From: Alphaproteobacteria bacterium
GTDB taxonomy: Bacteria; Pseudomonadota; Alphaproteobacteria; Rs-D84
Length of the DNA stretch: 64,000 nucleotides
NCBI GenBank assembly: GCA_033345195.1
Contig: JAWPOE010000008.1
Span: 181,048 to 245,047, forward strand
Direction of reading: 5' to 3'
Shown: one piece after another, positions 20,619-61,170 of the stretch
Layout of the letters: each line of letters begins with the position of its first letter
How positions within the stretch are numbered: the stretch's first letter is position 1
Notes under the pieces: generated by a model
What the model was told of the DNA's origin: nothing
Seen by the model: the letters and a program-made list of their open reading frames with translations, nothing else
Database searches by the model: none
Program-made: the position numbers and the translations under genes

Positions 20619-20864
20619 ATGAAAAAGTGTGTTAGTTCAACAACGGCGATAATTATATCTTTTTTTATAGGTTTTGGTTTGGGTATCTTGACCTGGGCAA
20701 ATCGTGACGCAATGTCCGCGTCATCCGCCACCTGTGCCGATGGTTCGCGACCAGACAAGCATGGTTGTTGTGCCGGCGAAATCTATACCGACATGGGGGA
20801 TTTAGGCTTCAATTGTTGTCCAGGGGATAGCGAGGATAGCGACTGTTTCCCTCCGCTAAAATAA
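20619..20864 (+). CDS. small exported protein consisting of the same 6-Cys domain
   Basis: Hydrophobic leader, then CADGSRPDKHGCC...CCP...CFPPLK, paralogous to the C-terminus of 20024-20608. Confidence 0.75.
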   Translation: MKKCVSSTTAIIISFFIGFGLGILTWANRDAMSASSATCADGSRPDKHGCCAGEIYTDMGDLGFNCCPGDSEDSDCFPPLK

Positions 20865-20961
20865 AATCTAATGGCATATCTATGAACGGTGCCGTCCCCT
20901 CATGTAGCGACATGTACACTACGGGGACGGCACTGTCCATATCTATACCATTATCTTTTAT
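20861..20961 (+). repeat. fixed-geometry hairpin element, copy A
   Basis: ATCT, arm 20882-20899, core TCATGTAGCGACATGTACACTAC, arm 20923-20940, ATCTA. Outer imperfect inverted repeat overlaps the upstream TAA. Confidence 0.85.
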
Positions 20962-21091
20962 TTTTAATAAATTATAATAATTAAATTATTCTATTTAATT
21001 TTCGCATGGCAAGGGGTGTGGGCAGGGCGAATTAATTATTCACTTGATTTTGTTTTCATTTAGTATATAATCACAAGGCTTTGAATTTGTT

Positions 21092-21166
21092 GCGGGCATA
21101 GTACAAAGGCTAGTATGCAAGCCTTCCAAGCTTGAAATGCGGGTTCGATTCCCGCTGCCCGCACCA
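21092..21166 (+). tRNA. tRNA-Gly(TCC)
   Basis: GCGGGCA/TGCCCGC acceptor stem; CAAGC-CTTCCAA-GCTTG anticodon arm; TTCGATT; ends A-CCA. Confidence 0.92.
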
Positions 21167-21172
21167 AGGATT

Positions 21173-21259
21173 GGGCGTGCGCCGGAGTTGGAGAGCCGGG
21201 GCAGACTGTAAATCTGTTGGCTTAAGCCTGAGCTGGTTCGAATCCAGCCACTCCCACCA
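21173..21259 (+). tRNA. tRNA-Tyr(GTA)
   Basis: GCAGA-CTGTAAA-TCTGT anticodon arm, long variable arm, TTCGAAT, ACCA. One acceptor-stem mismatch. Confidence 0.88.
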
Positions 21260-21449
21260 TTAAAACACCGACCCTTGTGGTCGGTTTTTTAATGGTCTGG
21301 TCAGGCTGAGATGAGAACCAGCGTTAAAGTCGCGCAGCGACGATTGGTTCGAGCCGTAGGCGAAAGGGACCCATAGAGCGATAGCGAATATGGGAATTAC
21401 AATCCAGCCACTGGCACCATTAAAATAACCTACCTTGTGTGGTTTTTTT
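21260..21449 (+). repeat. tRNA-linked structured element re-creating the tRNA-Tyr 3' end
   Basis: AATCCAGCCACT(CC/GG)CACCATTAAAA at 21241-21265 and 21401-21425 (160-bp period), with a degenerate inverted copy at about 21287-21319. Confidence 0.8.
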
Positions 21450-21508
21450 GTTTATATTTTTGAATAAATATATTTTTTTTGATAAAATGCCTCTAAAAGG
21501 GGGGTGCG

Positions 21509-22084: not shown

Positions 22085-22110
22085 AAAAATGCCCTGTTTG
22101 GGGCATTTTT
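22083..22110. terminator. bidirectional terminator
   Basis: AAAAATGCCC-TGTTTG-GGGCATTTTT between convergent genes. Confidence 0.75.
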
Positions 22111-30952: not shown

Positions 30953-31981
30953 ATGCCTGCAATTTCAATAATTATTCCGATTTATAATGTTGAAAAATAT
31001 TTACGTAGATGTTTGGATAGTGTATTAAATCAGACCTTTACCAATTGGGAGGCAATTTGTGTCAACGACGGCAGTCCAGATGATAGTTATAAAATCTTGG
31101 ACGAATATGCCGCCCGTGACAAGCGATTTAAAATCGTAAACAAAGAAAATGGCGGTTTGTCTGATGCACGTAATGCAGGTATGGCGGTCGCAACAGGTGA
31201 TTATATTCTGTATTTAGATAGTGATGATTTTATTCATCCGCAAACAATGGAAATTGCATATTTCCTGGCAAAGCGTGATGGTTCAGATATTGTGTCGTTT
31301 ACATATGACAGAATTTATCGTCCACAATTGATGGTGCGTCATGTTCTGGGACGTGATACGGATAATGTTATCCCAGGGCGTATTCACAAAAAATATAATC
31401 CGGGGCGTATCAAGACGTTGGTGACAGATGATATTTATGAATATGCAACAGAGCGTACACATAATGCACCAGGGCGTAAGAAAAAGTGGCTGGTAAAGCA
31501 TTGTCAGGTTTGGAAAAATATGTATAAACGTGAACTGATTGCAGATATTCCATTTATAAAGGGAATTTTGTTTGAAGACTTCCCATGGTGGAGCCAGGTC
31601 ATGTTACGTAATCCACGTACAACGATTGCGCCACTGCCGTTGTATTTCTATATACCAAACTTTGGCGGGATTGTGTTAAGTGCGAAACAGTTACGTATTA
31701 TGCAAAGTTTGTGTGTTGGAATAAAGACAGCCTATACAATTTACACAGAACGTGCGACAAAATATCAGATGCAAAAATGGTCTGAAAATTTCCAATGGTA
31801 TTTTATCAAATGGGCGTTTCGTAAAATAAAATATATTGATTCAGATGGTGATATGGAGGCTGCACGTGAATGTTTCCGTGAACTGGAACGTATTGGTGCG
31901 TTGGATAGGCCACCATACAGATGGGCAAAAAAACTGCGTATGGAAATATGCAAGTTTATTAAAACGTGTAGATATGAATAA
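30953..31981 (+). CDS. glycosyltransferase family 2
   Basis: SIIIPIYNVEKYL..CLDS, VNDGSPD, NGGLSDARN.G, LDSDD, FED. Confidence 0.92.
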   Translation: MPAISIIIPIYNVEKYLRRCLDSVLNQTFTNWEAICVNDGSPDDSYKILDEYAARDKRFKIVNKENGGLSDARNAGMAVATGDYILYLDSDDFIHPQTMEIAYFLAKRDGSDIVSFTYDRIYRPQLMVRHVLGRDTDNVIPGRIHKKYNPGRIKTLVTDDIYEYATERTHNAPGRKKKWLVKHCQVWKNMYKRELIADIPFIKGILFEDFPWWSQVMLRNPRTTIAPLPLYFYIPNFGGIVLSAKQLRIMQSLCVGIKTAYTIYTERATKYQMQKWSENFQWYFIKWAFRKIKYIDSDGDMEAARECFRELERIGALDRPPYRWAKKLRMEICKFIKTCRYE

Positions 31982-32009
31982 AAAAAATCCCGCATTCGCG
32001 GGATTTTTT
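31981..32009. terminator. bidirectional terminator
   Basis: AAAAAATCCCGC-ATTC-GCGGGATTTTTT. Confidence 0.8.
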
Positions 32010-33021
32010 ATTTTTCAAATTTGGATTTTTCTGGAAATCTTTCCGCCATAAATTTTGCATTGTCACGCAGTATTGTTTCATCTGTGTCGCGCGAATCGTT
32101 TATGCAAAATGTTGGTGCGCGCAACAGGGCGCTGCGTGCGCTGGATGTATCGGTGCAACAAACGGGCGAATTTTTTATCCACGGCATAAATATTGCATTG
32201 TAAATAAAATCTGTGATTTTATGTCGTGTATGCTTGCGCGCGCGACTGTGTATAAATACGGCACGGTCGTTTATTAAGTCGTACAGATTGAACAGCCAAC
32301 GTTGAACCTCGTTATTAGTTCTGAATTTGTTTCTGATTTGTTGGTCGATTTGACCGGTTATCATTGGGTGGTTGCGACACGCAATCCATGTTGATTTTAG
32401 GTATGGGTCAATGCCGTGCGATGGACGATATTTGTAAACTTTTTTGCCGAAAATGCGTTCGATAAATTGTGCAGATAGTATCAATGTTTGGGTGTATTCG
32501 TCAACGCGTTCCAACCAGGTACCTATGTTTTTACTGCGGTTGGAATGATTGCTGTATAATACACGTGCGCGTCCGTATTTGTCATAAAAGAAATCTGGTG
32601 TCAGTGGACGGTTAAAGAACATGTCGTCGTTCATTAATAGAAAGTGTTCTGATAGCCCCGGTATGTTTGGTATGCACATTTCGATTGCGGTCGCGTTAAA
32701 TGTTGGTATCGCGTCGGCCGGCATAATTTGTTCGTGTGGGACAATTGTGATTTTCGGATGTTTGGTGTTTAGCCATTTGGGAACCTGGTTAAAACCAGTC
32801 ACAATATAAATATGATTTACCCAAGGGGCAAATTTATCAACACTGCGTAATGAATACAGAAATTCACCGTTGTCGCGCCAGCGTGCCTCTATCGCGGCAT
32901 CTTTATAAACAGGGCGTTTGCCTTTGATAATTTTTAGCCATTTATCTTTTTCAGCGCGCCATTTTTTGTCGCGGTCGTCAACCCATAAATAAACGATATC
33001 GATTTTCATGTCTGGTATCAT
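32008..33021 (-). CDS. Stealth-family hexose-1-phosphate transferase (CpsY/SacB-like)
   Basis: CR1 IDIVYLWVD, CR2 RWRDNGE..YSLRS...LSEHFLLMNDDMFF, CR4 FCIND. Confidence 0.9.
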   Translation of the reverse strand: MIPDMKIDIVYLWVDDRDKKWRAEKDKWLKIIKGKRPVYKDAAIEARWRDNGEFLYSLRSVDKFAPWVNHIYIVTGFNQVPKWLNTKHPKITIVPHEQIMPADAIPTFNATAIEMCIPNIPGLSEHFLLMNDDMFFNRPLTPDFFYDKYGRARVLYSNHSNRSKNIGTWLERVDEYTQTLILSAQFIERIFGKKVYKYRPSHGIDPYLKSTWIACRNHPMITGQIDQQIRNKFRTNNEVQRWLFNLYDLINDRAVFIHSRARKHTRHKITDFIYNAIFMPWIKNSPVCCTDTSSARSALLRAPTFCINDSRDTDETILRDNAKFMAERFPEKSKFEK

Positions 33022-35986: not shown

Positions 35987-36014
35987 AGAACCGCCATTTG
36001 GCGGTTCTTTTTTT
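35985..36014. terminator. bidirectional terminator
   Basis: AAAGAACCGCC-ATTT-GGCGGTTCTTTTTT. Confidence 0.8.
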
Positions 36015-43802: not shown

Positions 43803-43873
43803 ATTTTCTGTATTTTTTCTTTACTTTTTGGGTCTTATTTACTATCGTGGACGTATTAAATAAGGAGAAATAT

Positions 43874-44191: not shown

Positions 44192-44206
44192 TAAAAGGGT
44201 TGTGGT

Positions 44207-45769: not shown

Positions 45770-45790
45770 AGAATGCAAAGGGGAAGTATT

Positions 45791-46654: not shown

Positions 46655-46689
46655 AAAAATTGTGCCGCAACCAGGGGGAGGAAACGCGT

Positions 46690-48198: not shown

Positions 48199-48219
48199 TT
48201 ATAAAAAAGGGGTGTGGGT

Positions 48220-48900
48220 ATGTTTTTAACAACAAATAATAAAATATTATGGGGGCGTATGGCGTTGGGCGCGTTGGTGACAGCGGTCTTGGTTGCGTCT
48301 GGGGTTTTGTGGTTTGATAAGCCTGTGTTTTTGTTCTTGCGTCAATTTGATTGTGCAGCATGGCCGATATTGGGCAAGATTACAGATGGCAAGGTTTGGA
48401 TTATTGCGTCATTTATTGCGGTGTTGGTATTTTGTGCCAGAAAGTGTGTAAAGACAGATTGCGAATTTTTAATTAATAAAAAGCACAGGGGAATTTTGGC
48501 ATATTTGCGCAATTTATTTGCAAATATGCGTACAAATAATGCATTTTTGATTTTTTGCAGTGTTTTGTCTGCGGGTGTTATTGTTAAGGTGTTAAAGTGT
48601 TGTATTGGTCGTGCGCGTCCTGTGTTTTTCGAAGCGTTGGATATGACAGGATTCTTTCCGCCGTCATTAGAGTGGGCATTTAATTCCATGCCGTCGGGAC
48701 ATACAACGGTTAGTTTTGCAGGCCTGGTTATGATTGGTATGTTGGCGCCAAAGTACAAGGTGTTAACGTGGACGTTTGCGATTGTTATTGGTTTTTCACG
48801 CGTTGCAATGGGTGTACATTGGCCATCGGATGTTATATTTGGTGCCTTTATTGGTATGGTTGTTGCAGATATCGTAAAGGGAACATTGTTAAAGAAATAA
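48220..48900 (+). CDS. PAP2-family membrane phosphatase (LpxE/LpxF/undecaprenyl-PP phosphatase-like)
   Basis: K...GRARP, PSGH, SRV.MGVHWPSDV..G. Confidence 0.88.
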   Translation: MFLTTNNKILWGRMALGALVTAVLVASGVLWFDKPVFLFLRQFDCAAWPILGKITDGKVWIIASFIAVLVFCARKCVKTDCEFLINKKHRGILAYLRNLFANMRTNNAFLIFCSVLSAGVIVKVLKCCIGRARPVFFEALDMTGFFPPSLEWAFNSMPSGHTTVSFAGLVMIGMLAPKYKVLTWTFAIVIGFSRVAMGVHWPSDVIFGAFIGMVVADIVKGTLLKK

Positions 48901-48928
48901 AAAATCCGCCATTTGGCGGTTTTTTTTT
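48899..48928 (+). terminator. intrinsic terminator
   Basis: CCGCC-ATTT-GGCGG followed by a T run. Confidence 0.75.
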
Positions 48929-48957
48929 GTCATTTTTTATGATAAAATACATACGTT

Positions 48958-51213
48958 ATGGCAAAAGAATCTAAATTTTTACCACAGCGCATATCCGATG
49001 CGTTAAAGAGTTTGCTGGCCCGTGTGTTCGGGGCGGTTGTTTGTGTTTTAGGAATTTGGGCAACGTTTGCATTGCTGTTTTATAATCCGTATTTAGATGG
49101 TTTTGGCGTTGCCAGTTCGTTCGGTGACCAATCATTGATGGGGCATGTTGTTGGCATGGTGCGATATGCGGTTGGTGTGATACCGGGGCTGTTTGTGTTT
49201 TTATGTGTTGCGCGTTGTGGGGCTGCAACCGTGATTGGGTTAGATAGTGGTGATGCACCGGAATATAATTTCTTGCGTGGGTTTATTGCAGTATGCATGG
49301 GGGCGGCTGGTTTTGGATTGTTGGTGCCGTCGGCATCGTTTGGTGGTATGTTTGGCGCGATTGTGGCCAGTGATGTTAGTTCACTGATTGGTTCCTGGGC
49401 GGTGATTCCTGGGATTTTCTGTGTGTTGGGATTTTTGGTAATGGGGGGTATGCTGTTGCATGTAAAATGGGCGCATGTTCGTGGTGCGTTGCGTATGTTT
49501 GTGCGTTGGTTGCGCTGGATTGCGTCTGCGTTCCATTTGGTGCGTATCGAACAGAATGACAATGAAGAGCCTGTGGCCGAAGAAACAGATGAAGAATATG
49601 ACGAAGAAGAAGCCGAAGAAGAAGAGGAAGAAGAAAAGCCAAAGCGTGGTTTGTTGGGTAAAAAAGTTGCAAAGCCTGTCAAGGCCACGACATCGGTTGC
49701 CGCGGTTAAGATACGTAATGCGGGTGCATATGAATTGCCGGACCCGAAATTCTTGGAACGTTCTAATTTCAGTAAATGTTCTGTCACTAATGATTTGAAA
49801 CAAAACGCCAAGAATATGGAGGTGCATTTTGCACAATATGGTGTCTATGGCAAAGTGGTTGGTATTAAGCCGGGACCTGTGGTGACATTGTATGAATTTA
49901 TGCCAGACGATGGTACGCGTATGACGGACGTTAACAAGACTGTGACAGATATGGTGCGTGCAATGGCCACAGAAAATATTCGTATTGCACATATTCCGCG
50001 TACACAGTTGATTGGTGTTGAAATGGTAAATCTGAACCGTCAGACGGTACGCTATCGTGGGTTGGTTGAAAATCCGTTGTTTACAGAATCAAAGTACAAG
50101 ATTCCATTGGCGTTGGGTGTTGATATTGGTGGAAATCCAATGTATTTTGATTTGGCAAAAATGCCACATATGCTGATTGCAGGGCGTACTGGGTCTGGTA
50201 AGTCTGTATTTGTTCAGTCGTTGATTACATCGATTGTTTATCATTTTACGCCAGATAAGTGCAAGTTGATGATTATCGACCCAAAGGGTGTTGATTTCGG
50301 ATTCTGGGACGATATTCCACACTTGATTACACCGATTGTAAAGTTGGACCCAGGGGCGGCGGTGAATGCACTAAAATGGGCAGTACGGGAAATGGAAGAA
50401 CGTTATAAACAACTGCAATTATTAAATGCACGAAATATCGAAAGTTATAACGAAATGGCGGCGGAAAAACGCGCGTCTGGTGAAAAATTAACCAAACAGG
50501 TTGCCGTTGGGACAGACGAAGAAACCGGTGAATTGCTATTCGAAACCCAAGAAGTCGACTTGTCTGATATGTCATATATCGTAATTATTATTGACGAGGT
50601 TGCAGACCTGATGAGTTTGGCGCGTAAAGAGGTTGAATCATGTGTTCAACGTATCGCACAAAAGGCGCGTGCCGCCGGTATTCACCTGATTATGGCGACG
50701 CAAAGACCCGACGCGACAACAATTACCGGTGTTATCAAGGCGAATTTCCCAACACGTGTTTCGTTCCAGGCGCGCAGTCGTATCGACAGTACAACATGTC
50801 TGGGCGAAGGTGGCGCAGAAAATCTGCTTGCAATGGGTGATATGCTGTTTAGCGAGGCAGGGCGTATCCCTGTCCGTATACATGGCGCATTTATTGATGA
50901 CAGTGAATTAACACGTATTGGTAATTTCTTGCGCGCCCAGGGCGAACCAGAATATGCATCTGGCGTCACAGATGGCGAAGAGAATACGGATGCTGCACCG
51001 GCACCGTCTGCATCAGAGGTTAGGGTAGAAAAAAATGCCGATATGTATGAACAGGCCAAAGAAATCGTTGTTCGTGATAAAAAGCCAACAATTTCATATA
51101 TTCAGCGCAGGCTGGGTATCGGTTATAACAAGGCGGCCGGGTTTATAGAGCGCATGGAACAAGAAGGTGTTGTGTCTGCGCCTGACGCGAATAACAAACG
51201 CCACATTCTGTAA
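48958..51213 (+). CDS. ftsK: DNA translocase FtsK
   Basis: N-terminal TM domain, PHMLIAGRTGSGKSV, IIDEVADLM, ARAAGIHLIMATQRP, gamma domain IQRRLGIGYNKA. Confidence 0.97.
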   Translation: MAKESKFLPQRISDALKSLLARVFGAVVCVLGIWATFALLFYNPYLDGFGVASSFGDQSLMGHVVGMVRYAVGVIPGLFVFLCVARCGAATVIGLDSGDAPEYNFLRGFIAVCMGAAGFGLLVPSASFGGMFGAIVASDVSSLIGSWAVIPGIFCVLGFLVMGGMLLHVKWAHVRGALRMFVRWLRWIASAFHLVRIEQNDNEEPVAEETDEEYDEEEAEEEEEEEKPKRGLLGKKVAKPVKATTSVAAVKIRNAGAYELPDPKFLERSNFSKCSVTNDLKQNAKNMEVHFAQYGVYGKVVGIKPGPVVTLYEFMPDDGTRMTDVNKTVTDMVRAMATENIRIAHIPRTQLIGVEMVNLNRQTVRYRGLVENPLFTESKYKIPLALGVDIGGNPMYFDLAKMPHMLIAGRTGSGKSVFVQSLITSIVYHFTPDKCKLMIIDPKGVDFGFWDDIPHLITPIVKLDPGAAVNALKWAVREMEERYKQLQLLNARNIESYNEMAAEKRASGEKLTKQVAVGTDEETGELLFETQEVDLSDMSYIVIIIDEVADLMSLARKEVESCVQRIAQKARAAGIHLIMATQRPDATTITGVIKANFPTRVSFQARSRIDSTTCLGEGGAENLLAMGDMLFSEAGRIPVRIHGAFIDDSELTRIGNFLRAQGEPEYASGVTDGEENTDAAPAPSASEVRVEKNADMYEQAKEIVVRDKKPTISYIQRRLGIGYNKAAGFIERMEQEGVVSAPDANNKRHIL

Positions 51214-51318
51214 AATTAAATATAATAATTCATCTGCGCACGAACCCGAAACCTCATGTAGCGTCTGTACACTACGGTTTCGGGTTCGTGCGTATCTAAA
51301 TCATTCTATTTAATTTTT
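51211..51318 (+). repeat. fixed-geometry hairpin element, copy B1
   Basis: AAAATTAAATATAATAATT-CATCT, arm 51236-51253, TCATGTAGCGTCTGTACACTAC, arm 51276-51293, ATCT-AAATCATTCTATTTAATTTT. Confidence 0.88.
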
Positions 51319-51319
51319 C

Positions 51320-51413
51320 TAATGTTGTATCTGCTTGTGGTCGGCGCGCTCATGTAACTTCTGTACACTACGCCATTTCCAACCCGTTTATCTATACCAT
51401 TATTTTTTATTTT
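51320..51413 (+). repeat. hairpin element copy B2 (arms unpaired)
   Basis: Core TCATGTAACTTCTGTACACTAC at 51350-51371, then GCCATTTCCAACCCGTTT-ATCTATACCATTAT shared with C2 and, in part, with the A flank. Confidence 0.75.
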
Positions 51414-51496
51414 ATCCCATTGCAAGAGGGCGATTATTTTTATTTTTGTCTTTTATTCTTTTTGTTTTTATGTTAAAATTAACGGTAAGAGAGAAA

Positions 51497-53911
51497 ATGA
51501 AGCGCTTTATTCATGTTTTTTTATTAATGTTTTGCGCCATGCCAGGGTTGGCATTGGCACAGGTTGCAACCACCGCAGGCAGTAATCTTACCGCCTGGAA
51601 TGGTAATATGGGGGCAACAAATAATAATGAATGGAATCAAATGATGAATCCGCGTGGTGGCGGGGGGGCTGGTGCAAATGCGCCTGCGGCGGATTTTGGT
51701 AATTGTAATGCATTGATATTGCGCTGTGCGCAACCAAAATGTTCGGGCTGTACAACAATGGATGTGGCGCGCCCGATTGTTGCAGGTTGTGTGAACAGTA
51801 ATGCGACATGTAAAAAACATGGTGATGCATTGATTGATTATATAACGGCACAAATGGTGTCAACCGCAAATTCCAGGGCGCAAGAGGCACAAATGCAGGC
51901 CCAGGCGGCAGCTGCCCAGGCAGCAGCGGCAGAAAGCAATGCGCAAATGCAACAAATGCAAATGCAGATGCAACAGATGCAGGCGCAAATGGCGGAACAA
52001 AATCAACAGCAAATGCAACAAATGCAGGCGGCGCTGGAACAACAAAAAGCAATGACAGATGCCGCATTGGCAGAAGCTGCCGCCGCGGCGCAACAACAGG
52101 TGGCGCCGGTTGCAACATCGACATCGTCAGGTGGGACTGTGGGTGATGGATCTGTCGGTGGGGGATTGACTGCGGCACAACAACAGGCCGCCGCCGCCGG
52201 GGTTGAGGCAGATATTTTGGTTCGTGAACAGATTTCTGGGCAAATTTTAACCAAGATAGAAGATGCAGAAATTGCGTTAAAAAAACTGAATGCACAAATG
52301 CAAGAGACGTTTAGATATGCCGGTTGTGATGTGTTTGGTAATAACTGTGCCGGACCAAAGCGTGTAAAAAAATTCAAGGAAATGGCGTTGGAATATTTCC
52401 GCCCATATGATGAAGTGGTTGATAATGCGTATGAAGCATTGGAAATGGCATTGGCGGTTGGCGTTGACGTGTCTGATGTTATTATGATGTTAAGCGGTGC
52501 GTGTAATCGTTGGGGTAAATTCTTGTGCAATATGCCACAGACCAAGAATAAAGAAAATGCGCCGTATCCACGATATGATTCCACAAATTGTCGTGGCGAA
52601 AAGTCTGTAAAGGGTGCGTTGGCACGTGCCTCGGCAGGGGGCAAGACTTTTGAAACAACATTGCGTGGTGGGTTTGAATGTTCACCTGGTATGGTGGTGC
52701 CACCCCAGGACGATGTTCAGTGTACATTGGTTTCATTCGTTGGTGGCGAAGGCGAAGGTGACGAAGTCTTGCGTGAATGGTTGCTGGAAGGGGAAGAGGG
52801 TGATGGTATGACCCGTGTTGGTTGTGCGACATCTGCGCTGGATACGTTGCCGATGTTTGGTCGCCGCAGCAGTCGTCGTGATTCCAGTTCGACATTGGAT
52901 TTGGATACACTGGAACGTATCTTGGTTCAGGACGCGCCAGAGGTGGTTGGTCAAAACAGATTTATGCGTTCAAATTCGGAAACACCAGAAACGTCACGTT
53001 TGAAGTATTGTGCGATGACCCCACGCGGTTACGAAACATTGCGTGGCGTGTTAAGCAGCAAGAAATTACCGAAAAAGATTTGCGTCCCATATGATACGTT
53101 GGCGCGTTCATATGAAACCCAGGGTTCCATATCGATTGATTATAATGGTGCCAGTGGGCTGATGGCCAGTGGTGTTATGCCGGCGGATGTGAATAAGTAT
53201 ACTTGTGATAATTTTCTTACAAGTGGGAAAAATGGGGTGCCACCGGTGTGTAATGCTCGATGGGTTGGCACTGAAACAGTGGGGTCATGTCAATATAACG
53301 CAACAAATTGTGTGCTTGAATATGGTAGTGATGGTATAAAAGCTTTGCGTGAATTGTCGTTGGACGAAAAGAGGGAACGGGGCTGTCGCGCAAGCGAAAG
53401 TGGTGGCACATGGAATGCGTCTGCAAAAAAATGTGATTGTCCATCGGGTAAAAAAGTACGTGAAAATACTTCGTACCAGTGTGTCAGTGCAGAAGCTATT
53501 ACGGACGCTGATTGTAAAGCATTTGCCAAAGAAATGGGTGCTGATGATGCTAATGCCAGGGTTAATGGTGATGGTACATGCGTTGCGAAAAATTACCAAT
53601 TGATTAATTATGGTTATTGTGATGTGCGTAAATGCAATGGTGACGGCGTCAGAAAACGCAAAATATCTGAAGGTGGTTCTTATAATTATAATGTCTGCTG
53701 TTGGTGTAGCAAAGGTGCTGGTTATGCATTTAATCCAGACAGCGGTTCATGTACAGATTCCGGTGGGGGGATAGTGTCTTCGGCTGCGTTTATGAATGCT
53801 ATTGGATCAAATCCTTTTAATTTGCCATTATTAAATAATGGTACAGCTTCGAATGCTGGGGGGCTGAGCAATTTAAAATTGGGCGTTAAAACCTCGTTTG
53901 GAGACTTTTAG
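51497..53911 (+). CDS. large secreted Cys-rich protein with Q/M/A-rich coiled-coil region
   Basis: Signal peptide ending ALA-Q, many Cys, QMQQMQ tract, EGF-like Cys modules near the C-terminus. Confidence 0.8.
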   Translation: MKRFIHVFLLMFCAMPGLALAQVATTAGSNLTAWNGNMGATNNNEWNQMMNPRGGGGAGANAPAADFGNCNALILRCAQPKCSGCTTMDVARPIVAGCVNSNATCKKHGDALIDYITAQMVSTANSRAQEAQMQAQAAAAQAAAAESNAQMQQMQMQMQQMQAQMAEQNQQQMQQMQAALEQQKAMTDAALAEAAAAAQQQVAPVATSTSSGGTVGDGSVGGGLTAAQQQAAAAGVEADILVREQISGQILTKIEDAEIALKKLNAQMQETFRYAGCDVFGNNCAGPKRVKKFKEMALEYFRPYDEVVDNAYEALEMALAVGVDVSDVIMMLSGACNRWGKFLCNMPQTKNKENAPYPRYDSTNCRGEKSVKGALARASAGGKTFETTLRGGFECSPGMVVPPQDDVQCTLVSFVGGEGEGDEVLREWLLEGEEGDGMTRVGCATSALDTLPMFGRRSSRRDSSSTLDLDTLERILVQDAPEVVGQNRFMRSNSETPETSRLKYCAMTPRGYETLRGVLSSKKLPKKICVPYDTLARSYETQGSISIDYNGASGLMASGVMPADVNKYTCDNFLTSGKNGVPPVCNARWVGTETVGSCQYNATNCVLEYGSDGIKALRELSLDEKRERGCRASESGGTWNASAKKCDCPSGKKVRENTSYQCVSAEAITDADCKAFAKEMGADDANARVNGDGTCVAKNYQLINYGYCDVRKCNGDGVRKRKISEGGSYNYNVCCWCSKGAGYAFNPDSGSCTDSGGGIVSSAAFMNAIGSNPFNLPLLNNGTASNAGGLSNLKLGVKTSFGDF

Positions 53912-53916
53912 ATATA

Positions 53917-54669
53917 ATGAAAAAATTGAAAAATATTTTTATTGGATTTTTTGTGGTCTGTGCTGTGACACTGGCACCGGTGTTTGCCGCGGATAATGGT
54001 TGTGATGACCCGGACAATGATGCAATTGTGGCGGAATTGGCACTGTGTTCAACGCATGCGTATAATATTGGTGTAACACAAAATCCAACCGGCGCGGATC
54101 GGGAATTGATGCGCGAAGTTGTCGCAATGAAAACAACCCTGATTACACAACAAATGTACAAGCAATATCAACAGATGGAATCGATGTTGCGTCGATTGAA
54201 AACGCAATTGCAAAAGGCGGTATTGAATACGAAATTACAGGTCGCCGGTGCAGACAGCAGTTCGGGCGGTTCCGGTGGTTCTGGTGGACGGTTTGAATCC
54301 AGCGATAGAAATGTTTATCTGGCTGGTATAGAAAATTGTATGAATTTATATGATGATGAAAAGATATTGGAATGTTATCAAAAGAATTTGACGACATTGG
54401 TGAATTCATCAAAACAGGGCAGTGATCCAAGTCCAGAAATAAAAAAACAGTTGGCAAATGATTACACGAATTTAAAAGCTATTGTATTTGGTGGTGAAAA
54501 AAGTGCGTGTACAGAATATTCTGATGGTAGTGATGGAAAAGATTTGTGTGTAAATTCAAAAATGAAGAACAAGGAATTTAAAGATACTTGTTTGAACAGA
54601 ATGCGTACGTGCTTGCAAAATCAAACGCGTGCATATAGAAATAATCAGGCAAAGTTAAGCAAAGATTAA
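53917..54669 (+). CDS. secreted helical Cys-containing protein
   Basis: Signal peptide ending VFA; ELALCSTHAYNIG, coiled coil, GS linker, then a Cys-containing domain. Confidence 0.8.
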   Translation: MKKLKNIFIGFFVVCAVTLAPVFAADNGCDDPDNDAIVAELALCSTHAYNIGVTQNPTGADRELMREVVAMKTTLITQQMYKQYQQMESMLRRLKTQLQKAVLNTKLQVAGADSSSGGSGGSGGRFESSDRNVYLAGIENCMNLYDDEKILECYQKNLTTLVNSSKQGSDPSPEIKKQLANDYTNLKAIVFGGEKSACTEYSDGSDGKDLCVNSKMKNKEFKDTCLNRMRTCLQNQTRAYRNNQAKLSKD

Positions 54670-54761
54670 AAATCCCCTAACTGGTATTCACGGTTGTATA
54701 TCTTTGTCACTCCTGCGCAGGGGTGGCAAAGGTGAGCGGGGAACTTTTAACCCCTGGGAAC

Positions 54762-55310
54762 TTAAAAACTATATCGAAATCCAGTGCCAATAAAGTTAAA
54801 GCCGTGATTTGTTTCTGTGAAATCGCCGTTCGAAAAGTGCAGGGTGAATATTTCTGCATTAATTCGGTTGTTAAATCGATAGCCAATAAATACGCGTTCG
54901 CCAAAGACCAGACGACTGGTGACATAGTCGTCGCCACTGTCGCGCATGTATGGCCCCAGGCCCGCGCCCAGGTAAAAATCACACCATGATAAAAACGCAA
55001 TGTCCCATGATATACCAATCGCGCCAAACGAACGGCCGTCGGAACTGTCATAGGCAAAGTTTTGCAGTGCGTGTATGTTTATGCGCCCCGGCAGGCGCAA
55101 TAGATTAATCGGCTGGCTGTATTCCAGCATTATTGTGGTCATGGGTTCAATTCGCCAGTCTGCCGGCATTATCAGATGTCCCAGGTCGCCGTGGCCGGTG
55201 CTTTGTGCGATATGTATGCCGATTGAATTTTGTTTGTTGTCACCAAACATCGGGTTGGCAAATGTGTAAAATGGAAAAAGCGTCATGAAAATGTATGCAA
55301 ATTTTTTCAT
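54762..55310 (-). CDS. PagL-like lipid A 3-O-deacylase, second paralog
   Basis: Signal peptide ending TFA-NPMF; LHFSNG; YSF terminus. Similar to 568-1125 (NPFF..., YSQP..). Confidence 0.7.
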   Translation of the reverse strand: MKKFAYIFMTLFPFYTFANPMFGDNKQNSIGIHIAQSTGHGDLGHLIMPADWRIEPMTTIMLEYSQPINLLRLPGRINIHALQNFAYDSSDGRSFGAIGISWDIAFLSWCDFYLGAGLGPYMRDSGDDYVTSRLVFGERVFIGYRFNNRINAEIFTLHFSNGDFTETNHGFNFIGTGFRYSF

Positions 55311-55511
55311 AATAAGAATTATATATTTTCGTGTGTCTGTTTTGCAATTTGACAAAAAGCCTATGAAAAACAATTGTGCCGTATAAATAAACGTGTTTAC
55401 ATGACGCGAAAAAATTGATATAATTAAGTAAATAGAAGGTGTATTTTGCATGGGGCGAATATGCCGAAAGGTTGGGTTTCTGGGCGTTTCCCAGAACACA
55501 GGGAGAGTTTT

Positions 55512-58433
55512 ATGAGAAGTCAAAAAATCGCAAATTCTATCAAGAATGCAATGGGGACGGTGTTCCTGTTGGCGGGGGCGTTTTTTGTTTGTTCAACTTT
55601 ATTGTCAATGCGTGCGGTCTTGGCGGACCCAATCGCGCCGGTGTATGACACGGTTATGGCACCCCAGGCGACGGTTGCGGGTGCAACATCGCGTGCGTCA
55701 AATGGGCGTGCAACAACATCGCGTGCCAATCCGCGTGGTAATGGCGCAACATCGCGTACAACGGTTGCGCGGACCGCAACAAATGTAAGTAATTCACGTG
55801 CGACAACGGCGCGTAATGTATCGAATGCCCGTGCAACAACAAACGCGCGTGCGGTTTCAAATCGTGCGGTTGCGTCACGTGGTAATGTGACAACACGTGG
55901 GACGGTCACAACGCGTGCTAATACGCCAACGCGTAATGTTGTGTCGCGCGCTAATGCGGTAACAAATCGTGCAAATGCAACAAATACGCGTTCTGTGCGT
56001 GCGCGTACGGCAACAACAGATGCGGTGTCAAATGCGCGTATATCCCTGCAGGGCAGTGCAATTCGTGGCAGTAAATCAACCCCAACAACATCGTATTCAT
56101 ATTTGACCAGCAAATTGTATACCGGTAATTATTCAAATATTATTGATTCAACCACAGGTCTGATTTCGAACGAGGCATTTACAAACTGTATGGAATCATA
56201 TTATACATGTATGGACGAAATTTGTACGGCGCGTAATTCTGCCCAGCGTCGCTGTGCGTGTGCTGGTCGTGTCAAAGCATTTGCAGAGGCGGAAACAGCC
56301 CTGGAATCTGCAAATGAAGAATTGATAAAGGTGTCTGGTGAATTGGCGCTGTTGATTGCAAACAAGGGTAAAGATGTTTCTGATGCGTTCCAGTTGACAG
56401 AGGCAGAACAAGTTATGAACTGTGTTTCGTGGCAGGATGTCACAAATCAATATGGTGCAAATTCGGAAGAGGCGATTGAATGGTGCTATGCCCACGGGAT
56501 TTATGGTTCAAATGGGGCAAACCTAAGTACATGTTCAAAACCGTCTTATTGTACGTCATCTGGTAATAATTTTGGGTTTGATGTTTCAAACCTGGATGGC
56601 AGTGGTTCTGATATTATGGCGTCTTTGCAATCATGGGCAGATGCCAAGGAAAAAACACTGACAATTATGACAGATGATACAGTTTCTTTGACCAGTGCGT
56701 TTGATAATTTGTCATCTGTGGTCAGTGGAATGGCTGGGATTGATGGTGCGTTAACAAATGCCGAAGATTTAAAGGATTCCTTGGCGGAAACATGGGGATA
56801 TGAATTGTTTGAATATGCGCACAACAATGTTTGTGGTCGCGTGTTGGATTCTTGTTTTAATGGAATATATGAGGCATGTGGTACACCGCCATCTGGTGGA
56901 CGCAAATGTTCAAATGGTGCGTCACAATGTCCATATAATTATAACAGTACAATTACTGTAAACAATACTGGTACATACGAATTGAATTTTGTGACCGCCA
57001 GCAGTGGCTATACATCATCGAATTCTGCGTCTTGTTTTGGTTATGCATCGACATCTGGTGATCCGTATTCAAATTTGCGTGGGCCGGTTGCAGATGCGCG
57101 TCGCAGCATTATGCAAAAGTATGCGTTGGATGCAAATGCAGACTGTGATGCGTATGGTGAACAGTTGCGTACAACCGCGCAAAATATCGGTTATCAAAAG
57201 GTTGCCGCCCAACAGGCATTGCAGCAAAAACGTCTGGAATTTGCCCAGGAAGAAGAAGAAACAACATTGGCCGCTGCGATAGAGGCAGGTACAAACTTTA
57301 ACGAATGTCTAAGCGAGATTTATGATTGTTATGAAACGCAGTCTTCGTCAAATCCAAACTGGCCAGATGCGCGTATCAAGACATATTGCGCCCAGATTGC
57401 AAATGTTCCGCATTGCTATGAAGAAATGATTTGTAATCCATCTGTGTCAAAATTCAAGGCGGTTATTGATGACGCAGACAGCGCCCAGTGCAATAATACC
57501 CAGGATTATACAACCAATACATGTCGCAATATTGTGACATTGAATGAAATCTTGAATGGTACGGGTGCAGAATTTGGCGCAGGATTTGACCCACGAACCA
57601 GCACAGATTCTGTGGCAATACGTGAACAATGCTTGCGTGATGCAGGGGTCGAAGATATACGTGTATGGTCGACGGATGTTGCAACAAACGTTCGTTGTAC
57701 AGTTGCAGAAACAGCAGCGGTTGATAAGAATGCTGAGCTTGCATATCGTGACGCAAAAGGTGGCGAATGTATTGTTACGCGGTGTCATGCTGGATTTACG
57801 TTGGAAAATGGCAGATGCGTATCAAATGCGATTGATTGTACATCTGAAATAAAGCATGCAACCAAGGCCGCGCGTACGGTATCTGATGGTAAAATGAATA
57901 CATGTTATGTTTCAGAATGTGAAGAAAATTGGACGCCGAATGAAAATAAAACTGCGTGTGTGGGTGTGAAGCGCGCGTGTTCTGGGGTTGAATTATATGT
58001 GGTTGGTGCGCTATCTGGAACAACAACATGGGGTGAAGATGGTTGGGCGGCGTGTCTGCCAACAGCGTGTCCAAATAATACTGTAATGGAAAATGGACAG
58101 TGTTCAACGACCAAGGATTGTACAGCTGAAATAGAACATGCAACCAAGGCAGAAAAGAAATATGAATCTGGTGGTAACTGGGGTCTTTGTGTGGCAACAG
58201 CTTGTGAAAATGGTTATCATATTTCTGGTAATTGGTGTGTACAAGATTGTGAGCCAGGTTCGTATTTGCCCGCAGGAAGTGTGGAATGTAAGATCTGTCC
58301 AGCAGGCAGTTATTGTGCTGGTGGTAATTTTGATTATTCTGGATATGGCGATCAGGGCAAACAGTATTGTATGAACGGTTATACGTCTGCAACTGGTGCA
58401 GAAATTGAAGAGGATTGTTTTGTAAATTTGTAG
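55512..58433 (+). CDS. large secreted Cys-rich protein with R/T/A-rich N-terminal tract and repeated C-terminal Cys modules
   Basis: GGGAG RBS; signal anchor; SRA/TTR low-complexity tract; CM..YY.CMD.IC...RRCAC; C-terminal CEPGSY...CKICPAGSYC.GG (ephrin-receptor-like/GCC2-GCC3-like). Confidence 0.8.
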   Translation: MRSQKIANSIKNAMGTVFLLAGAFFVCSTLLSMRAVLADPIAPVYDTVMAPQATVAGATSRASNGRATTSRANPRGNGATSRTTVARTATNVSNSRATTARNVSNARATTNARAVSNRAVASRGNVTTRGTVTTRANTPTRNVVSRANAVTNRANATNTRSVRARTATTDAVSNARISLQGSAIRGSKSTPTTSYSYLTSKLYTGNYSNIIDSTTGLISNEAFTNCMESYYTCMDEICTARNSAQRRCACAGRVKAFAEAETALESANEELIKVSGELALLIANKGKDVSDAFQLTEAEQVMNCVSWQDVTNQYGANSEEAIEWCYAHGIYGSNGANLSTCSKPSYCTSSGNNFGFDVSNLDGSGSDIMASLQSWADAKEKTLTIMTDDTVSLTSAFDNLSSVVSGMAGIDGALTNAEDLKDSLAETWGYELFEYAHNNVCGRVLDSCFNGIYEACGTPPSGGRKCSNGASQCPYNYNSTITVNNTGTYELNFVTASSGYTSSNSASCFGYASTSGDPYSNLRGPVADARRSIMQKYALDANADCDAYGEQLRTTAQNIGYQKVAAQQALQQKRLEFAQEEEETTLAAAIEAGTNFNECLSEIYDCYETQSSSNPNWPDARIKTYCAQIANVPHCYEEMICNPSVSKFKAVIDDADSAQCNNTQDYTTNTCRNIVTLNEILNGTGAEFGAGFDPRTSTDSVAIREQCLRDAGVEDIRVWSTDVATNVRCTVAETAAVDKNAELAYRDAKGGECIVTRCHAGFTLENGRCVSNAIDCTSEIKHATKAARTVSDGKMNTCYVSECEENWTPNENKTACVGVKRACSGVELYVVGALSGTTTWGEDGWAACLPTACPNNTVMENGQCSTTKDCTAEIEHATKAEKKYESGGNWGLCVATACENGYHISGNWCVQDCEPGSYLPAGSVECKICPAGSYCAGGNFDYSGYGDQGKQYCMNGYTSATGAEIEEDCFVNL
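57834..58150 (+). repeat. intragenic duplication with 282-bp period
   Basis: GATTGTACA(T/G)CTGAAATA(AAG/GAA)CATGCAACCAAGGC at 57834-57868 and 58116-58150. Confidence 0.8.
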
Positions 58434-58441
58434 CCTGATCA

Positions 58442-58780
58442 GTGTGTATATTTTCTTATGGTTCTGTTTCGGTGGGTGATTGTGCGCAGGCGTGTATCGA
58501 TGGGCCATCACAATATAATTCTAGGCTGGGTGCCACTTTGGCAAATGCTGGGATTTGTGGCCATAGCTATTTCCCTGGTGGCAGGTATGGTTATGTGTCA
58601 GAGCCGTTTAATGGTGTGGAAACGTGTGGTAGCAAAGTTCCATCATTAGATTATGTCACAGGCTGTGTTGATGCGCAAGAGGCGTGCGTCCAGTCTGGCG
58701 GTGGGTGGATTTCCAGTTCTAGGGAATGTCATTGTCCAACGGGAAAGACCCTGATTAATGGCTGGTGCAGAGCGGATTAA
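58442..58780 (+). pseudogene. orphan or detached Cys-rich C-terminal module
   Basis: No ATG, RBS or signal peptide; begins 8 bp after the TAG. CVQSGGGW...CHCPTGK resembles a module in 51497-53911. Confidence 0.45.
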
Positions 58781-58803
58781 AAATCCCCCGTTTGGGGGAT
58801 TTT
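58779..58803 (+). terminator. intrinsic terminator
   Basis: AAAATCCCCC-GTTT-GGGGGATTTT. Confidence 0.8.
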
Positions 58804-58893
58804 AAATTTCTGGAAACTTAGGCAAATGGGGCAATTTATTCTTTTTTATATAATCTTTTTGTGATATAATTTTAGCAAAAGGAGAATTATACA

Positions 58894-60168
58894 ATGATGA
58901 AAAAATTATCTTTGTTTGCCGTGCTGGCGGTTGTTGTATTGCCGGCGGTGGCTGATACAAATTGGGGAACGCGTGCCGGTTCCAGTGCAGATTTATCAAG
59001 TGCGCCTGCAACACGTACACGTCAAAATGTTAACTATGAAAAATATCAAACACGTACGTTGACCAAGACATATGAATCAAAAGATGCAGGGGATTTGTAT
59101 TACATAAAGCCACAAAATCGCAGTGCGCTGTATAAACAGTATGAAGGGGCAAATTCATCGTCCGCGCGTGCAATGAAAACAACATCACGTACATCACGTT
59201 CTGAACAGTTTACAAGCCGTATGAAACGTAAGTATTATTTGGCGCATCCGTTCTTTCAACCATTACAGGGAAAGTTTGGTTCGATTACAGATGTATCATA
59301 TACCGATACAGGTTATGATATAACATTGCCAAATACCAATTCTGGGATTTATGATTCGGCTGGAACAGCGCTTTCTTTCAATGGCGTGACGGGCAGTTGG
59401 GACGCATCAACTGTCATAGTCAAGGAAGATTTTAGTTATGGTATTACAGACCGTATCGCATTGGTCGCAATGGCACAATATGATAAAAGTGATTATGAAT
59501 TCAAGTGGGACGATGGGGCGCCGTCTGATAAAATGGATGATGATGGTTTGAATCTGTTTGGTATCGGTGGTCAGTGGCGTTTCGTTGATAACACAGAATG
59601 GATTGGGACTGTGGCTGCCTATTATCAGCATCAAAAAGATACCTCAAATAATCTGTTGTTAGAATTAAAGGGTGGGTACAAGGTTTCAAGATCAACCATC
59701 TATGCATTGGCGCGTGGTTGGTATCTGGACTTTGATGGCGATATTTATGGAAACGGTGTCAGTGGCAAGGATGCAAACGGTTATGATTCTGTGTTGTTGT
59801 TGGCATATGGTGACGAAGGTGACACCATGTATCTGGAAGCGGGCCTGGGCGTATTCAGTGTTTTGAACGAAGATTGGACATTGAATGTCGAAGGTGTATT
59901 TGGTGACTATGACTGGTTCAACCAGGCAACGATTAAGGGTGCAATTGGTTGGCAGCCAAATGACTGGTTTGCGTTGAATCTGTATGCGCGTGCATCGATA
60001 TACAGTGGTGCAGATGGTAAGGAATTGGATACGTATTTCTGGCGCGCAGATTCTTATTTAGATGATGCAGGTGAAGAACCTTTAACTGGCTTATGGCCTA
60101 TTGGTAAAACAGAAATAGATAAATATTCTGAATATTCAATCGGTGCACAGGTTATATTCCAGTTTTAG
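58894..60168 (+). CDS. outer-membrane beta-barrel protein
   Basis: AGGAG RBS, signal peptide, amphipathic strands, terminal QVIFQF. Confidence 0.8.
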   Translation: MMKKLSLFAVLAVVVLPAVADTNWGTRAGSSADLSSAPATRTRQNVNYEKYQTRTLTKTYESKDAGDLYYIKPQNRSALYKQYEGANSSSARAMKTTSRTSRSEQFTSRMKRKYYLAHPFFQPLQGKFGSITDVSYTDTGYDITLPNTNSGIYDSAGTALSFNGVTGSWDASTVIVKEDFSYGITDRIALVAMAQYDKSDYEFKWDDGAPSDKMDDDGLNLFGIGGQWRFVDNTEWIGTVAAYYQHQKDTSNNLLLELKGGYKVSRSTIYALARGWYLDFDGDIYGNGVSGKDANGYDSVLLLAYGDEGDTMYLEAGLGVFSVLNEDWTLNVEGVFGDYDWFNQATIKGAIGWQPNDWFALNLYARASIYSGADGKELDTYFWRADSYLDDAGEEPLTGLWPIGKTEIDKYSEYSIGAQVIFQF

Positions 60169-60234
60169 TTAATTGGAAAAATTATTGTTGCCCCCATTAT
60201 CGGGGGCAATGTGTCTGAAATAAGGGGGGATTTT

Positions 60235-60966
60235 ATGCGTAAATTTTTATCTGTCTTTATGTTGATTTGTTTGTTTGCGGCGCCGTCATTCGCAAATGAT
60301 TTGGCGCGCGATACATCAGACCCATTGTTCTTGGAACAAGATAATGAAATCTTTACAAAAACATCTTTGACATATTGGGATCACATTTTGCGTGGCGGGC
60401 AATCTGTATCTTATGGTTTAAACGACAGATTAAGTATTGGTGCAAATGTTCATTATCAGCACGATTTTAATGGTGACGAGGATGGTTTTTCTGCAATTGA
60501 CTTGGGTGGCGTTTATCGTATGGGGTTGGCGGAAAATAATGATGCGCATGTAATCTCTGACGTATTGTTTGGATTTAAATTTGGTGGCAGTTCACAGGTG
60601 CGTACCCCAGATTATGCAGATTCAACGTATTATGTCGGGTTGCGTATCGGTCGTCAGTGGACAGGTATGACATTATCTGCAACAGTAAAATCAACATGGG
60701 TTTTTGATGATGAACGTGGCGTTGCGTTCTTGGACTTTACCCCAGAATCTTATTTCCGCATTGCGCCAGATTGGCGTATCGGTGCCGGATTTACAATTCG
60801 CAAGGCAACACACAAAGACCCAATTTATCATACCGACTATGACCAGGAATGGTTGCATTTTAAATTGGTTCGTCAATATGGGCGCACCCAATACATTGGA
60901 CATGTTGACTATGAATTTGAATCAGATGATGCCCAGGTTGGTGCGCGCGTCAATATTCTATTCTAA
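60235..60966 (+). CDS. outer-membrane beta-barrel protein, paralogous to the upstream gene
   Basis: Signal peptide ending SFA; DPLF/HPFF and SYG..DR motifs shared with the upstream gene; terminal VNILF. Confidence 0.8.
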   Translation: MRKFLSVFMLICLFAAPSFANDLARDTSDPLFLEQDNEIFTKTSLTYWDHILRGGQSVSYGLNDRLSIGANVHYQHDFNGDEDGFSAIDLGGVYRMGLAENNDAHVISDVLFGFKFGGSSQVRTPDYADSTYYVGLRIGRQWTGMTLSATVKSTWVFDDERGVAFLDFTPESYFRIAPDWRIGAGFTIRKATHKDPIYHTDYDQEWLHFKLVRQYGRTQYIGHVDYEFESDDAQVGARVNILF

Positions 60967-61073
60967 AAAATTAAATATAATAATTCATCTATAACCAAAA
61001 ACACCGGCTCATGTAGCGTCTGTACACTACGCCGGTGTTTTTGGTTGTATCTAAATCATTCTATTTAATTTTT
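60964..61073 (+). repeat. fixed-geometry hairpin element, copy C1
   Basis: Same outer flanks and core as B1; arms 60991-61008 and 61031-61048 have a different sequence. Confidence 0.88.
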
Positions 61074-61170
61074 CGCATGGCAAGGGGTGTGGTGGCGCCG
61101 GCTCATGTAGCGTCTGTACACTACGCCATTTCCAACCCGTTTATCTATATCATTATCTTTTATTTTTTTA
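61074..61170 (+). repeat. hairpin element copy C2 (arms unpaired)
   Basis: CGCATGGCAAGGGGTGTGG (also at 21003-21021), core at 61103-61124, then GCCATTTCCAACCCGTTT-ATCTA. Confidence 0.75.

Follow-up and report, generated by a model that had tools for sequence, protein, structure and literature searches.

REP-like palindromic repeats of a variant form that probably stand in for gene-end terminators in uncultured gut Alphaproteobacteria

We examined a 64,000-nt stretch of DNA (referred to here as the window) from contig JAWPOE010000008.1 of an Alphaproteobacteria bacterium (assembly GCA_033345195.1) and identified copies of a hairpin repeat that belongs to a family confined to one genus and its close kin. 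Its units take the position of the terminator, 3′ of genes on the leading strand. Its units are similar to repetitive extragenic palindromic (REP) sequences, in a variant form, and they probably stand in for the terminators of the genes that they follow. A first-pass annotation had described three such hairpins in the window as a dispersed element of invariant geometry with freely variable arms.

Distribution and anatomy of the repeat

The source genome, denoted by G000 (other G numbers refer to genomes of the same genus), is 898 kb long in 8 contigs, with 42% G+C, and carries around 20 units at around 13 loci. A covariance model (R1), built on the geometry of the units, matched 81 of 100 other genomes of the genus; together with G000 these form the panel of 101 genomes used for the enzyme profile counts below. 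In an order-wide draw, matches were found in 45 of 54 genomes of the genus, in 2 of 7 from the other genera of the family and in 0 of 29 from other families. Records with the same core were all metagenome bins from ruminant and horse guts, titled Alphaproteobacteria bacterium or Candidatus Enterousia. No units (0) were found in the viral contigs and none in the phages searched, and the plasmids gave one unrelated 42-nt match only. Rfam at its gathering threshold reported only 4 tRNAs in the window, and in E-value mode only sub-threshold matches to microRNA hairpins.

A full unit forms one long hairpin of about 110 nt, and reads TAA, an A/T-rich left flank, ATCT, an arm, the core, the complementary arm, a second ATCT and a T-rich right flank. 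The left flank is of two main types, AAAATTAAATATAATAATTC or AAATAAAATCTAATGGCAT, and the core has the form TCATGTA-(6-8 nt)-GTACACTAC. The outer stem is A/T-rich, and its first TAA is the stop codon of the gene or abuts it, while the inner stem of 18-19 bp is G+C-rich and conserved in its pairing only. Between the two stems the ATCT boxes are opposed and unpaired, as 2x2 mismatches. The loop is asymmetric, 22-23 nt long and about 98% conserved; its invariant letters in the consensus are ATGTA and GTACA-T-C, and TAGCG is present in the loop of at least 90 of 116 distinct copies, with TAACT or TACGT variants being common. Inverted TAAAAT...ATTTTA ends were seen on units, and tandem arrays of whole units exist. 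A G-rich box follows 74 of 207 distinct right flanks; in 67 of these 74 cases its distance from the right-flank ATCT is 30-33 nt.

Geometry and arm statistics were drawn from 116 distinct full copies (115 for the arm clustering), the geometry copies having been picked by R1, which was itself built on that geometry. The distance from ATCT to the core was 18 nt in 95 of the 116, 19 nt in 20 and 17 nt in 1; from the core to the second ATCT it was 18 nt in 90, 19 in 24, 17 in 1 and 12 in 1; the core itself was 22 nt in 97 and 23 nt in 19. Across the source genome and the genus, the geometry proposed as invariant is close to fixed.

For the structure, 51 units were aligned with MAFFT and folded with RNAalifold, which recovered the 18-bp stem, both partners having changed in 17 of 22 pairs. 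A 43-pair structure including the outer stem was then written out and tested: 89.2% of its cells were paired, versus 37-45% with the partners slid, and 29 pairs varied on both sides, the observed values being reached in 0 of 500 shuffles. Covariation extends to the outer stem (columns 8/109 are UA in 26 and AU in 22 units; columns 19/98 are AU in 23 and GC in 23). Mean pairwise identity was 0.976 at conserved core positions, 0.63-0.66 in the flanks and 0.45-0.47 in the arms.

Placement downstream of stop codons

A co-oriented stop codon closing an open frame of at least 54 codons precedes the units that come first in an array in 63 of 68 cases among the relatives and in 10 of the 11 cases from G000. 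Between this stop and the ATCT box there are 9-32 nt, so the reading frame can extend a few codons into the left flank. TAA accounted for 72 of 73 stops before these units, versus 596 of 813 called open reading frames (ORFs) genome-wide. The upstream genes are core genes and encode S13 (rpsM), EF-P (efp), DnaN, S18 (rpsR), a type II secretion system F protein (T2SS-F) and FtsK.

In 4 of 5 congeners free of the element, an ordinary stem with a T-run directly follows the 3′ end of ftsK. At window 3879-3913, G000 has an ordinary terminator and G023 has a unit at the orthologous site; this filled-versus-empty pair represents a replacement, not a clean insertion. Where two genes converge, the opposite gene has its ordinary terminator on the far side of the unit. 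Within the unit, the T-rich tail follows the outer stem and not the inner one. One gut metatranscriptome run (X1) contained 0.36 of the sampled words.

The ordinary terminators belong to a few near-identical families, composed of an A-run, a CCCCC or CCGCC stem and a T-run. They were seen at window 3879-3913, 6401-6435, 31979-32013, 35985-36013, 48896-48930 and 58775-58809.

Orientation relative to replication

Polarity was determined in 65 loci of 3.8-8 kb from many genomes, with the leading strand taken as the G-rich strand after coding-strand correction. All 77 units in these loci were on the leading strand, versus 330 leading and 137 lagging genes, and the strand with TCATGTAGCG was always the leading (G-rich) one. 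Of 67 arrays, 62 had a positive local skew; so did 16 of the 19 arrays between convergent genes, either of which might have served as host. All 13 loci of G000 were within those 22 of its 48 twenty-kb windows that have an absolute skew of at least 0.13. Since kin genomes are not independent, the counts for placement and polarity overstate the number of events.

About half of G000 (C3; C4 0-180 kb; C8 0-140 kb, which includes none of the 64-kb window) has a coding-corrected GC skew near zero. The rest shows an absolute skew of 0.13-0.22 with sharp within-contig transitions, and the units, as well as dnaN, are present only there. One clear unit in the opposite replication orientation was seen at L038 (G016:C53:5195-6115), with perfect palindromic flanks and AGAT for ATCT on its right side.

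The two strands of a unit are predicted to fold differently. The minus strand was more stable in 51 of 51 units, with -53.2 vs -42.6 kcal/mol under RNA parameters and -29.9 vs -25.8 under DNA parameters, which leaves the weaker fold on the strand exposed as lagging-strand template. The opposed ATCT boxes read as tandem G.A pairs on the minus strand, where G.U also replaces the C.A mismatches in the outer stem; there the core lengthens the stem as GUAGUG/CGCUAC, with a bulge of 4 nt. All of the conserved asymmetries (ATCT boxes, C.A mismatches and loop) weaken the sense RNA hairpin and strengthen the antisense one.

Exchange of arms between loci

Comparison of loci and species indicates that the family evolves by copy-and-replace between units. 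An arm cluster was shared at orthologous loci in 11 of 83 genome pairs and at different loci of one genome in 25 of 216, against a background of 97 of 1654. Single arm families were amplified at 3-4 loci of one genome in a lineage-specific manner, and different arm families were found to occupy the same orthologous site. The G000 loci at C1 72.8 kb and window 60965 differ by 1 mismatch in 112 nt across a shared unit and the beginning of the half-unit after it, and G023 carries another arm family at both of the orthologous sites. At ftsK, where G023 has about 90% DNA identity to G000, one complete unit of the GCCATTTCC family was detected in G023; in G000 a different complete unit precedes a chimera in which the left half comes from a third family and the right half from a GCCATTTCC-family unit. 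The leuS-type locus differs between these two genomes exactly between ATCT and TCAT. At both loci the differences start and stop at ATCT, TCAT or the core.

The same modular build was observed in the incomplete copies. Chimeras and half-units are joined at conserved modules, the chimeras at the loop; the G-rich box substitutes for the left flank and arm in half-units, which form arrays with a period of about 90 nt. Shells that lack the inner hairpin were identified at window 20966-21001 and at C1 45018-45073 (L095:219-274), the latter retaining only GTGTGT between ATCT and a complementary AGAT. Type-A and type-B flanks substitute for each other at one site, and species with about 90% identical ftsK DNA differ in the presence or absence of units. 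A case that the first-pass annotation took as counting against its reading, with all copies fixed at orthologous positions and serving as terminators only, holds by half: sites are often shared and units do replace terminators, but the occupant of a site changes.

The metatranscriptome contigs contain a strain variant with a different right arm at window 61040.

The arms are inherited families, neither unconstrained nor templated elsewhere. The 115 copies had 99 distinct arm pairs, in partial agreement with the idea of freely variable arms, but these group into 27 clusters that recur across species. An identical arm pair may be found in different species with its own mismatches kept, as in ATGAACGGTGCCGTCCCC/GGGGACGGCACTGTCCAT. 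The left arm is purine-rich and the right arm pyrimidine-rich. Several arm families resemble an A-tract, a G+C stem and a T-tract, and one of them is 16-17/18 identical to the A-tract and stem of two ordinary G000 terminators (C8 92860 and C8 111950).

Templating of the arms from elsewhere was rejected. The 27 G000 arms gave 16 matches with up to 2 mismatches in the unit-masked genome, versus 1-4 for shuffled arms, and all but about 5 of the 16 were opposite arms or units missed by the mask. The remaining ones were the two ordinary terminators, matched by one arm family, and single chance-like matches in coding DNA. Hypermutation of the kind produced by diversity-generating retroelements was likewise discarded: close species with the same arm family at an orthologous site carry identical units there, and reverse transcriptases are uncorrelated with the units. 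G.T exceeded A.C on the plus strand (51 vs 23 in 61 unique arm pairs); this excess was set aside and not used as evidence for an RNA role, because the copies are related and a leading-strand mutation bias predicts the same sign. The G-box was also considered as a universal wobble-pairing left arm, and this was rejected as well, since in 38 half units it made 7.1 Watson-Crick and 4.0 G.T pairs with its own right arm, barely above the 6.4 and 3.9 made with the right arms of other units. In one G004 array the G-box pairs at 15 of 18 positions, as counted by eye.

Candidate mobilising enzymes

As the first-pass annotation had noted, no enzyme gene is adjacent to the units of the window. Y1_Tnp (PF01797), the domain of REP-associated tyrosine transposases (RAYT), was detected in 0/1 for the source genome itself and in 1/101 genomes of the genus, and no unit flanks the single gene, which is in G044 (best R1 E-value there 0.44). 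Co-occurrence with RAYT or TnpA(Y1) genes, which the first-pass annotation had proposed to look for, was not supported. IS110 was found in 0/101 genomes. RVT_1 was present in 35/101, uncorrelated with the units and missing in the element-rich G000, G004, G021 and G024. Phage_integrase was detected in 101/101 genomes, with only two copies in the element-rich G023, G066 and G092. These absences are weak evidence, because metagenome bins often lose insertion sequences and mobile DNA.

The open frames that contain most of the reverse-transcriptase genes of the genus are about 330-390 aa long, similar to retron-type or defence-type enzymes. The DUF559 nuclease was considered as a partner and rejected, as it is in 39/101 genomes and uncorrelated with the units. 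Up to 9 DUF559 matches were seen in one genome of the genus. In G023, a 122-aa DUF559 gene is located where G000 has a unit (L098:1050-1500, G023:C35), between the stop codon and a small hairpin downstream that is kept in both genomes; the gene is bracketed by a TTCCCCTCCCACGGAGGGG inverted repeat.

The window in detail

At the three loci described in the first-pass annotation, we found ATCT, the 18-nt arms, the core and an outer inverted repeat starting from the TAA of the upstream plus-strand gene, all as it had stated. The arms are ATGAACGGTGCCGTCCCC, GCGCACGAACCCGAAACC and ATAACCAAAAACACCGGC at loci 1, 2 and 3, respectively, and the core is TCATGTAGCG(ACA/TC)TGTACACTAC. Each arm pairs with its own partner, apart from the wobbles and the single mismatch already reported: locus 1 has one G.T and one A.C, locus 2 one G.T and locus 3 one T.G. 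The core pattern gave 5 matches (1+4) in the window versus 0.00-0.01 expected from shuffles. The two beyond the noted loci (cores 51350-71 and 61103-24) belong to units with a non-pairing left arm, each being second in a short array. All window units described below are on the plus strand.

Full unit 1, with type-B flanks, spans 20857..20965 (G000:C8:201903-202015; R1 119.6 bits, E 1.5e-23). It is composed of ATCT (20878-81), arm (20882-99), core (20900-22), arm (20923-40), ATCT (20941-44) and a T-rich right flank, and its left flank contains the TAA stop (20862-64) of a small Cys-rich ORF. It is followed at 20966..21030 by a type-A shell without the ATCT-arm-core-arm-ATCT part and then by the G-rich box CGCATGGCAAGGGGTGTGGGCAGGGCG, with right-flank-A and G-box matches at C8 202026 and 202056. 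Upstream, at window 20024-20864, two small paralogous ORFs of 194 and 84 aa lie next to each other; both start like signal peptides and have a Cys-rich C-terminal block in common, and the second (84 aa) had no Pfam match.

Full unit 2 (51211..51318; R1 121 bits) has type-A flanks and starts on the TAA (51211-13) of ftsK, a gene identified by its Pfam domains. Its parts are ATCT (51232-35), arm (51236-53), core (51254-75), arm (51276-93), ATCT (51294-97) and the right flank. A chimeric second unit comes directly after it at 51319..51432, with its core at 51350-71. This chimera has a left half from the TGCTTGTGGTCGGC arm family and GCCATTTCCAACCCGTTT (51372-89) as its right arm, followed by a type-B right flank and a G-box-like tail; its arms are unpaired (3/18 Watson-Crick).

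Full unit 3 (60964..61073; R1 119.7 bits), again with type-A flanks, starts on the TAA (60964-66) of a 251-aa ORF for which no Pfam match was found. It consists of ATCT (60987-90), arm (60991-61008), core (61009-30), arm (61031-48), ATCT (61049-52) and the right flank. The half unit next to it, at 61074..61188, has a G-rich box (61074-61102) replacing the left flank and arm, then the core (61103-24), the right arm GCCATTTCCAACCCGTTT (61125-42), ATCT (61143-46), a type-B right flank and the terminal G-box ACTGCAAGGAGGTGGGGTG.

Discussion

Our preferred reading, which we put forward tentatively, is that of a modular repeat which replaces terminators, is reshuffled by recombination between its copies and is constrained by replication polarity. 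A unit would then serve as the Rho-independent terminator, or the 3′-end hairpin, of its upstream gene. Copy-and-replace could proceed by gene conversion, unequal crossing-over or slippage, with putative breakpoints in the conserved modules of about 22-25 nt (left flank, loop and right flank). Such breakpoints would let both arms move together and would result in loop-joined chimeras and tandem half-units. As for the polarity, the strands fold with unequal strength, and the tolerated orientation may be the one which puts the weaker hairpin on the single-stranded lagging-strand template; alternatively, perhaps only that orientation is able to arise. The first-pass idea of a mobile or recombining element conserved in structure and length agrees with the swapped arm families and the loop-joined chimeras, but not in its view of the arms as unconstrained or templated.

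Several observations weigh against this reading. A simple terminator scan of the three window loci called 0 units, because the 22-nt loop is longer than 8 nt and there is no T-run within 2 nt of the inner stem. The X1 data over window 43000-62900 are contigs only, without strand or ends, and are no proof of transcription. A terminator role does not explain the loop conservation of about 98%, and the predicted weakening of the sense hairpin by the conserved asymmetries would be odd for a plain terminator. The polarity could instead mirror a bias towards genes with high expression, most of which are encoded on the leading strand. The swap of flank types leaves only about 10 nt of common A/T-rich ends, which is too short for ordinary homologous recombination. 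In addition, the G023 unit at the site of a plain G000 terminator means that new sites do arise, and these need insertion or wholesale replacement.

As the main rival reading, it is possible, though doubtful, that the units are non-autonomous elements of the kind of REPINs (REP doublets forming hairpins) or miniature inverted-repeat transposable elements (MITEs), moved in trans while folded as a single strand on the lagging-strand template, with any terminator function being secondary. The strict replication polarity is similar to that reported for IS200/IS605-type elements in the accessible part of PMC6006769, and the amplification of single arm families, the presence/absence differences between species with about 90% identical ftsK DNA, the tandem whole-unit arrays with TAAAAT...ATTTTA ends, the restriction to one bacterial family (0/29 genomes of sister families) and the conserved strand-specific mismatches and bulged loop, which are of no use to RNA stability, all speak for such an element. 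The mobilising enzyme would have to be one not recognised here, possibly a host protein or one encoded in unbinned DNA, as the candidates surveyed above are rare or absent (Y1_Tnp, IS110), unrelated to the presence of units (RVT_1, DUF559) or limited to two integrase-family genes in G023, G066 and G092; moreover, viral contigs and phages had none, the only plasmid match was short and unrelated, and the filled/empty comparison revealed a replacement with no clean target duplication. We consider it unlikely that the units are instead chromosomal single-strand signals on the lagging-strand template, whose reader would be an enzyme of the host, for instance RNA polymerase or primase, XerCD or a nuclease yet to be recognised, and where the loop and the unpaired ATCT would be recognition marks and the 18-bp stem a neutral, exchangeable spacer. 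If so, the family would spread without a transposase of its own through a fork-linked copy step, and this would be a new replication-coupled propagation of a non-coding element, marking leading-strand gene ends.

Other explanations give the minus strand or the fold itself a function. That the minus strand encodes a small antisense RNA gene with its own hairpin and U-tail, or terminates transcription entering from downstream, seems quite improbable. The antisense version would take the reverse complement of the G-box as a putative -35 and that of the right flank as -10, and it draws on the greater stability of the minus strand in all 51 units, on the fixed G-box spacing and on TTGCCA-16/17-AAT(A/G)AT, which two of the three window loci have on their minus strand. 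However, the promoter-like matches are at chance level (0-2 vs about 1 expected), most right flanks have no G-box (74 of 207 do), and the abutment of the left flank on a co-oriented stop codon would go unexplained. Very unlikely, in our view, is a chromosomal signal similar to a single-strand origin (sso), in which the lagging-template hairpin directs or limits primer synthesis as ssoA does on rolling-circle plasmids. The units share with such origins a long imperfect, strand-specific hairpin of similar size, and the TAGCG(T/A) of the loop equals the CS-6 (conserved sequence 6) motif and is on the strand exposed as lagging-strand template. Yet TAGCG, with its common variants, is not the most conserved part of the loop, a 6-mer match made post hoc is weak, no box similar to recombination site B (RSB) is present 5′ of TAGCG on that strand, and the adjacency to stop codons is left unexplained. 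The least tenable is an attC-like site whose folded strand is read by a tyrosine recombinase (integron-type or XerCD), a logic that the first-pass annotation had invoked and that is now largely refuted. Structure is conserved over sequence, the mismatched boxes resemble an unpaired spacer, and all units have one orientation directly after ORFs; but the consensus of 51 units, inspected by eye without a pattern scan, has no RYYYAAC/GTTRRRY boxes, the conserved part is the loop and not the base, the upstream genes are core genes rather than cassettes, and the element-rich genomes have just the two integrase-family genes.

Repeats, palindromes, transposition or mobile DNA were not met by a term search of the accessible text of PMC12306168, on reduced-genome gut lineages, and our literature search found no paper that mentions repeats in this lineage. 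The present family adds a well-defined, covariation-rich repeat to uncultured gut Alphaproteobacteria with reduced genomes. Its absolute polarity without a Y1 transposase separates a fork-linked constraint from RAYT-type mobilisation, and the replacement of ordinary terminators at orthologous gene ends makes the idea of a mobile terminator directly testable. The units also break assemblies, and are usable as strain markers.

Relation to known repeats and sites

Correia/NEMIS-type elements and other MITEs resemble the units: they are palindromic, about 100-150 nt long, with terminal inverted repeats; they are intergenic and co-transcribed, and can terminate transcription. Compared with Correia/NEMIS elements as generally described, the units have no related transposase, a covarying internal stem and a single orientation. 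Compared with MITEs, no target duplication is resolvable in their A/T-rich ends, and no autonomous relative was found in the searches made. Rickettsia palindromic elements are palindromic repeats inserted in frame inside ORFs. Going by that general description only, both families are found in a reduced alphaproteobacterial genome, with our units being located after or on the stop codon. As with attC sites, recognition through fold and geometry is plausible for the units, which also have mismatched internal boxes and one orientation after ORFs; they differ in the lack of R/L boxes, in the conserved loop, in having essential genes upstream and in the absence of an extra integrase of the IntI type, IntI-specific features not having been examined.

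According to the accessible parts of PMC4598088 and PMC8860593, CS-6 (TAGCGT) in the sso loop ends the primer RNA. As far as those parts describe ssoA, the units are similar to it, as their hairpin is long and strand-specific and shows TAGCGT in its terminal loop. They differ in being chromosomal, at about 8-20 per genome, after stop codons and far from any Rep gene or double-strand origin; they do not keep the motif strictly, and RSB-like letters, judged by eye against the same partial description, are only on the other arm or strand. A likeness to the F-type origin of transfer (oriT), in which the G-box variant GGGGTGTGGTG (window 61085-61095) equals 11 letters of the nic region as given in the accessible part of PMC13274134, was set aside and is probably due to chance, because other G-box variants differ and the tract is G/T-rich.

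The closest likeness in placement and build is to the REP families. The accessible part of PMC3733652 defines a REP as a stem-loop of 20-40 nt with an unpaired GTAG tag at one end, and describes the GTAG/CGTC families as mostly downstream of ORFs, sometimes supplying the stop codon, with complementary stem sub-families, G.T pairs and clusters built as mosaics. As far as that text goes, the units share with REPs, bacterial interspersed mosaic elements (BIMEs) and REPINs an extragenic position, mostly 3′ of ORFs, clustering, stop-codon donation and alternative stems. Unlike REPs, they are about 110 nt long with a 37-pair hairpin (18-19 and about 19 pairs) instead of 20-40 nt, carry GTAG inside the loop after the TCAT bulge instead of as an end tag, follow a strict leading-strand polarity, and are accompanied by RAYT in 1/101 genomes only. 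A closer relative could stand among the REP family tables of PMC3733652, of which part was accessible. With a 22-nt loop and a geometry that are conserved and a stem that is variable and exchangeable, the units are the reverse of most REP-like families.

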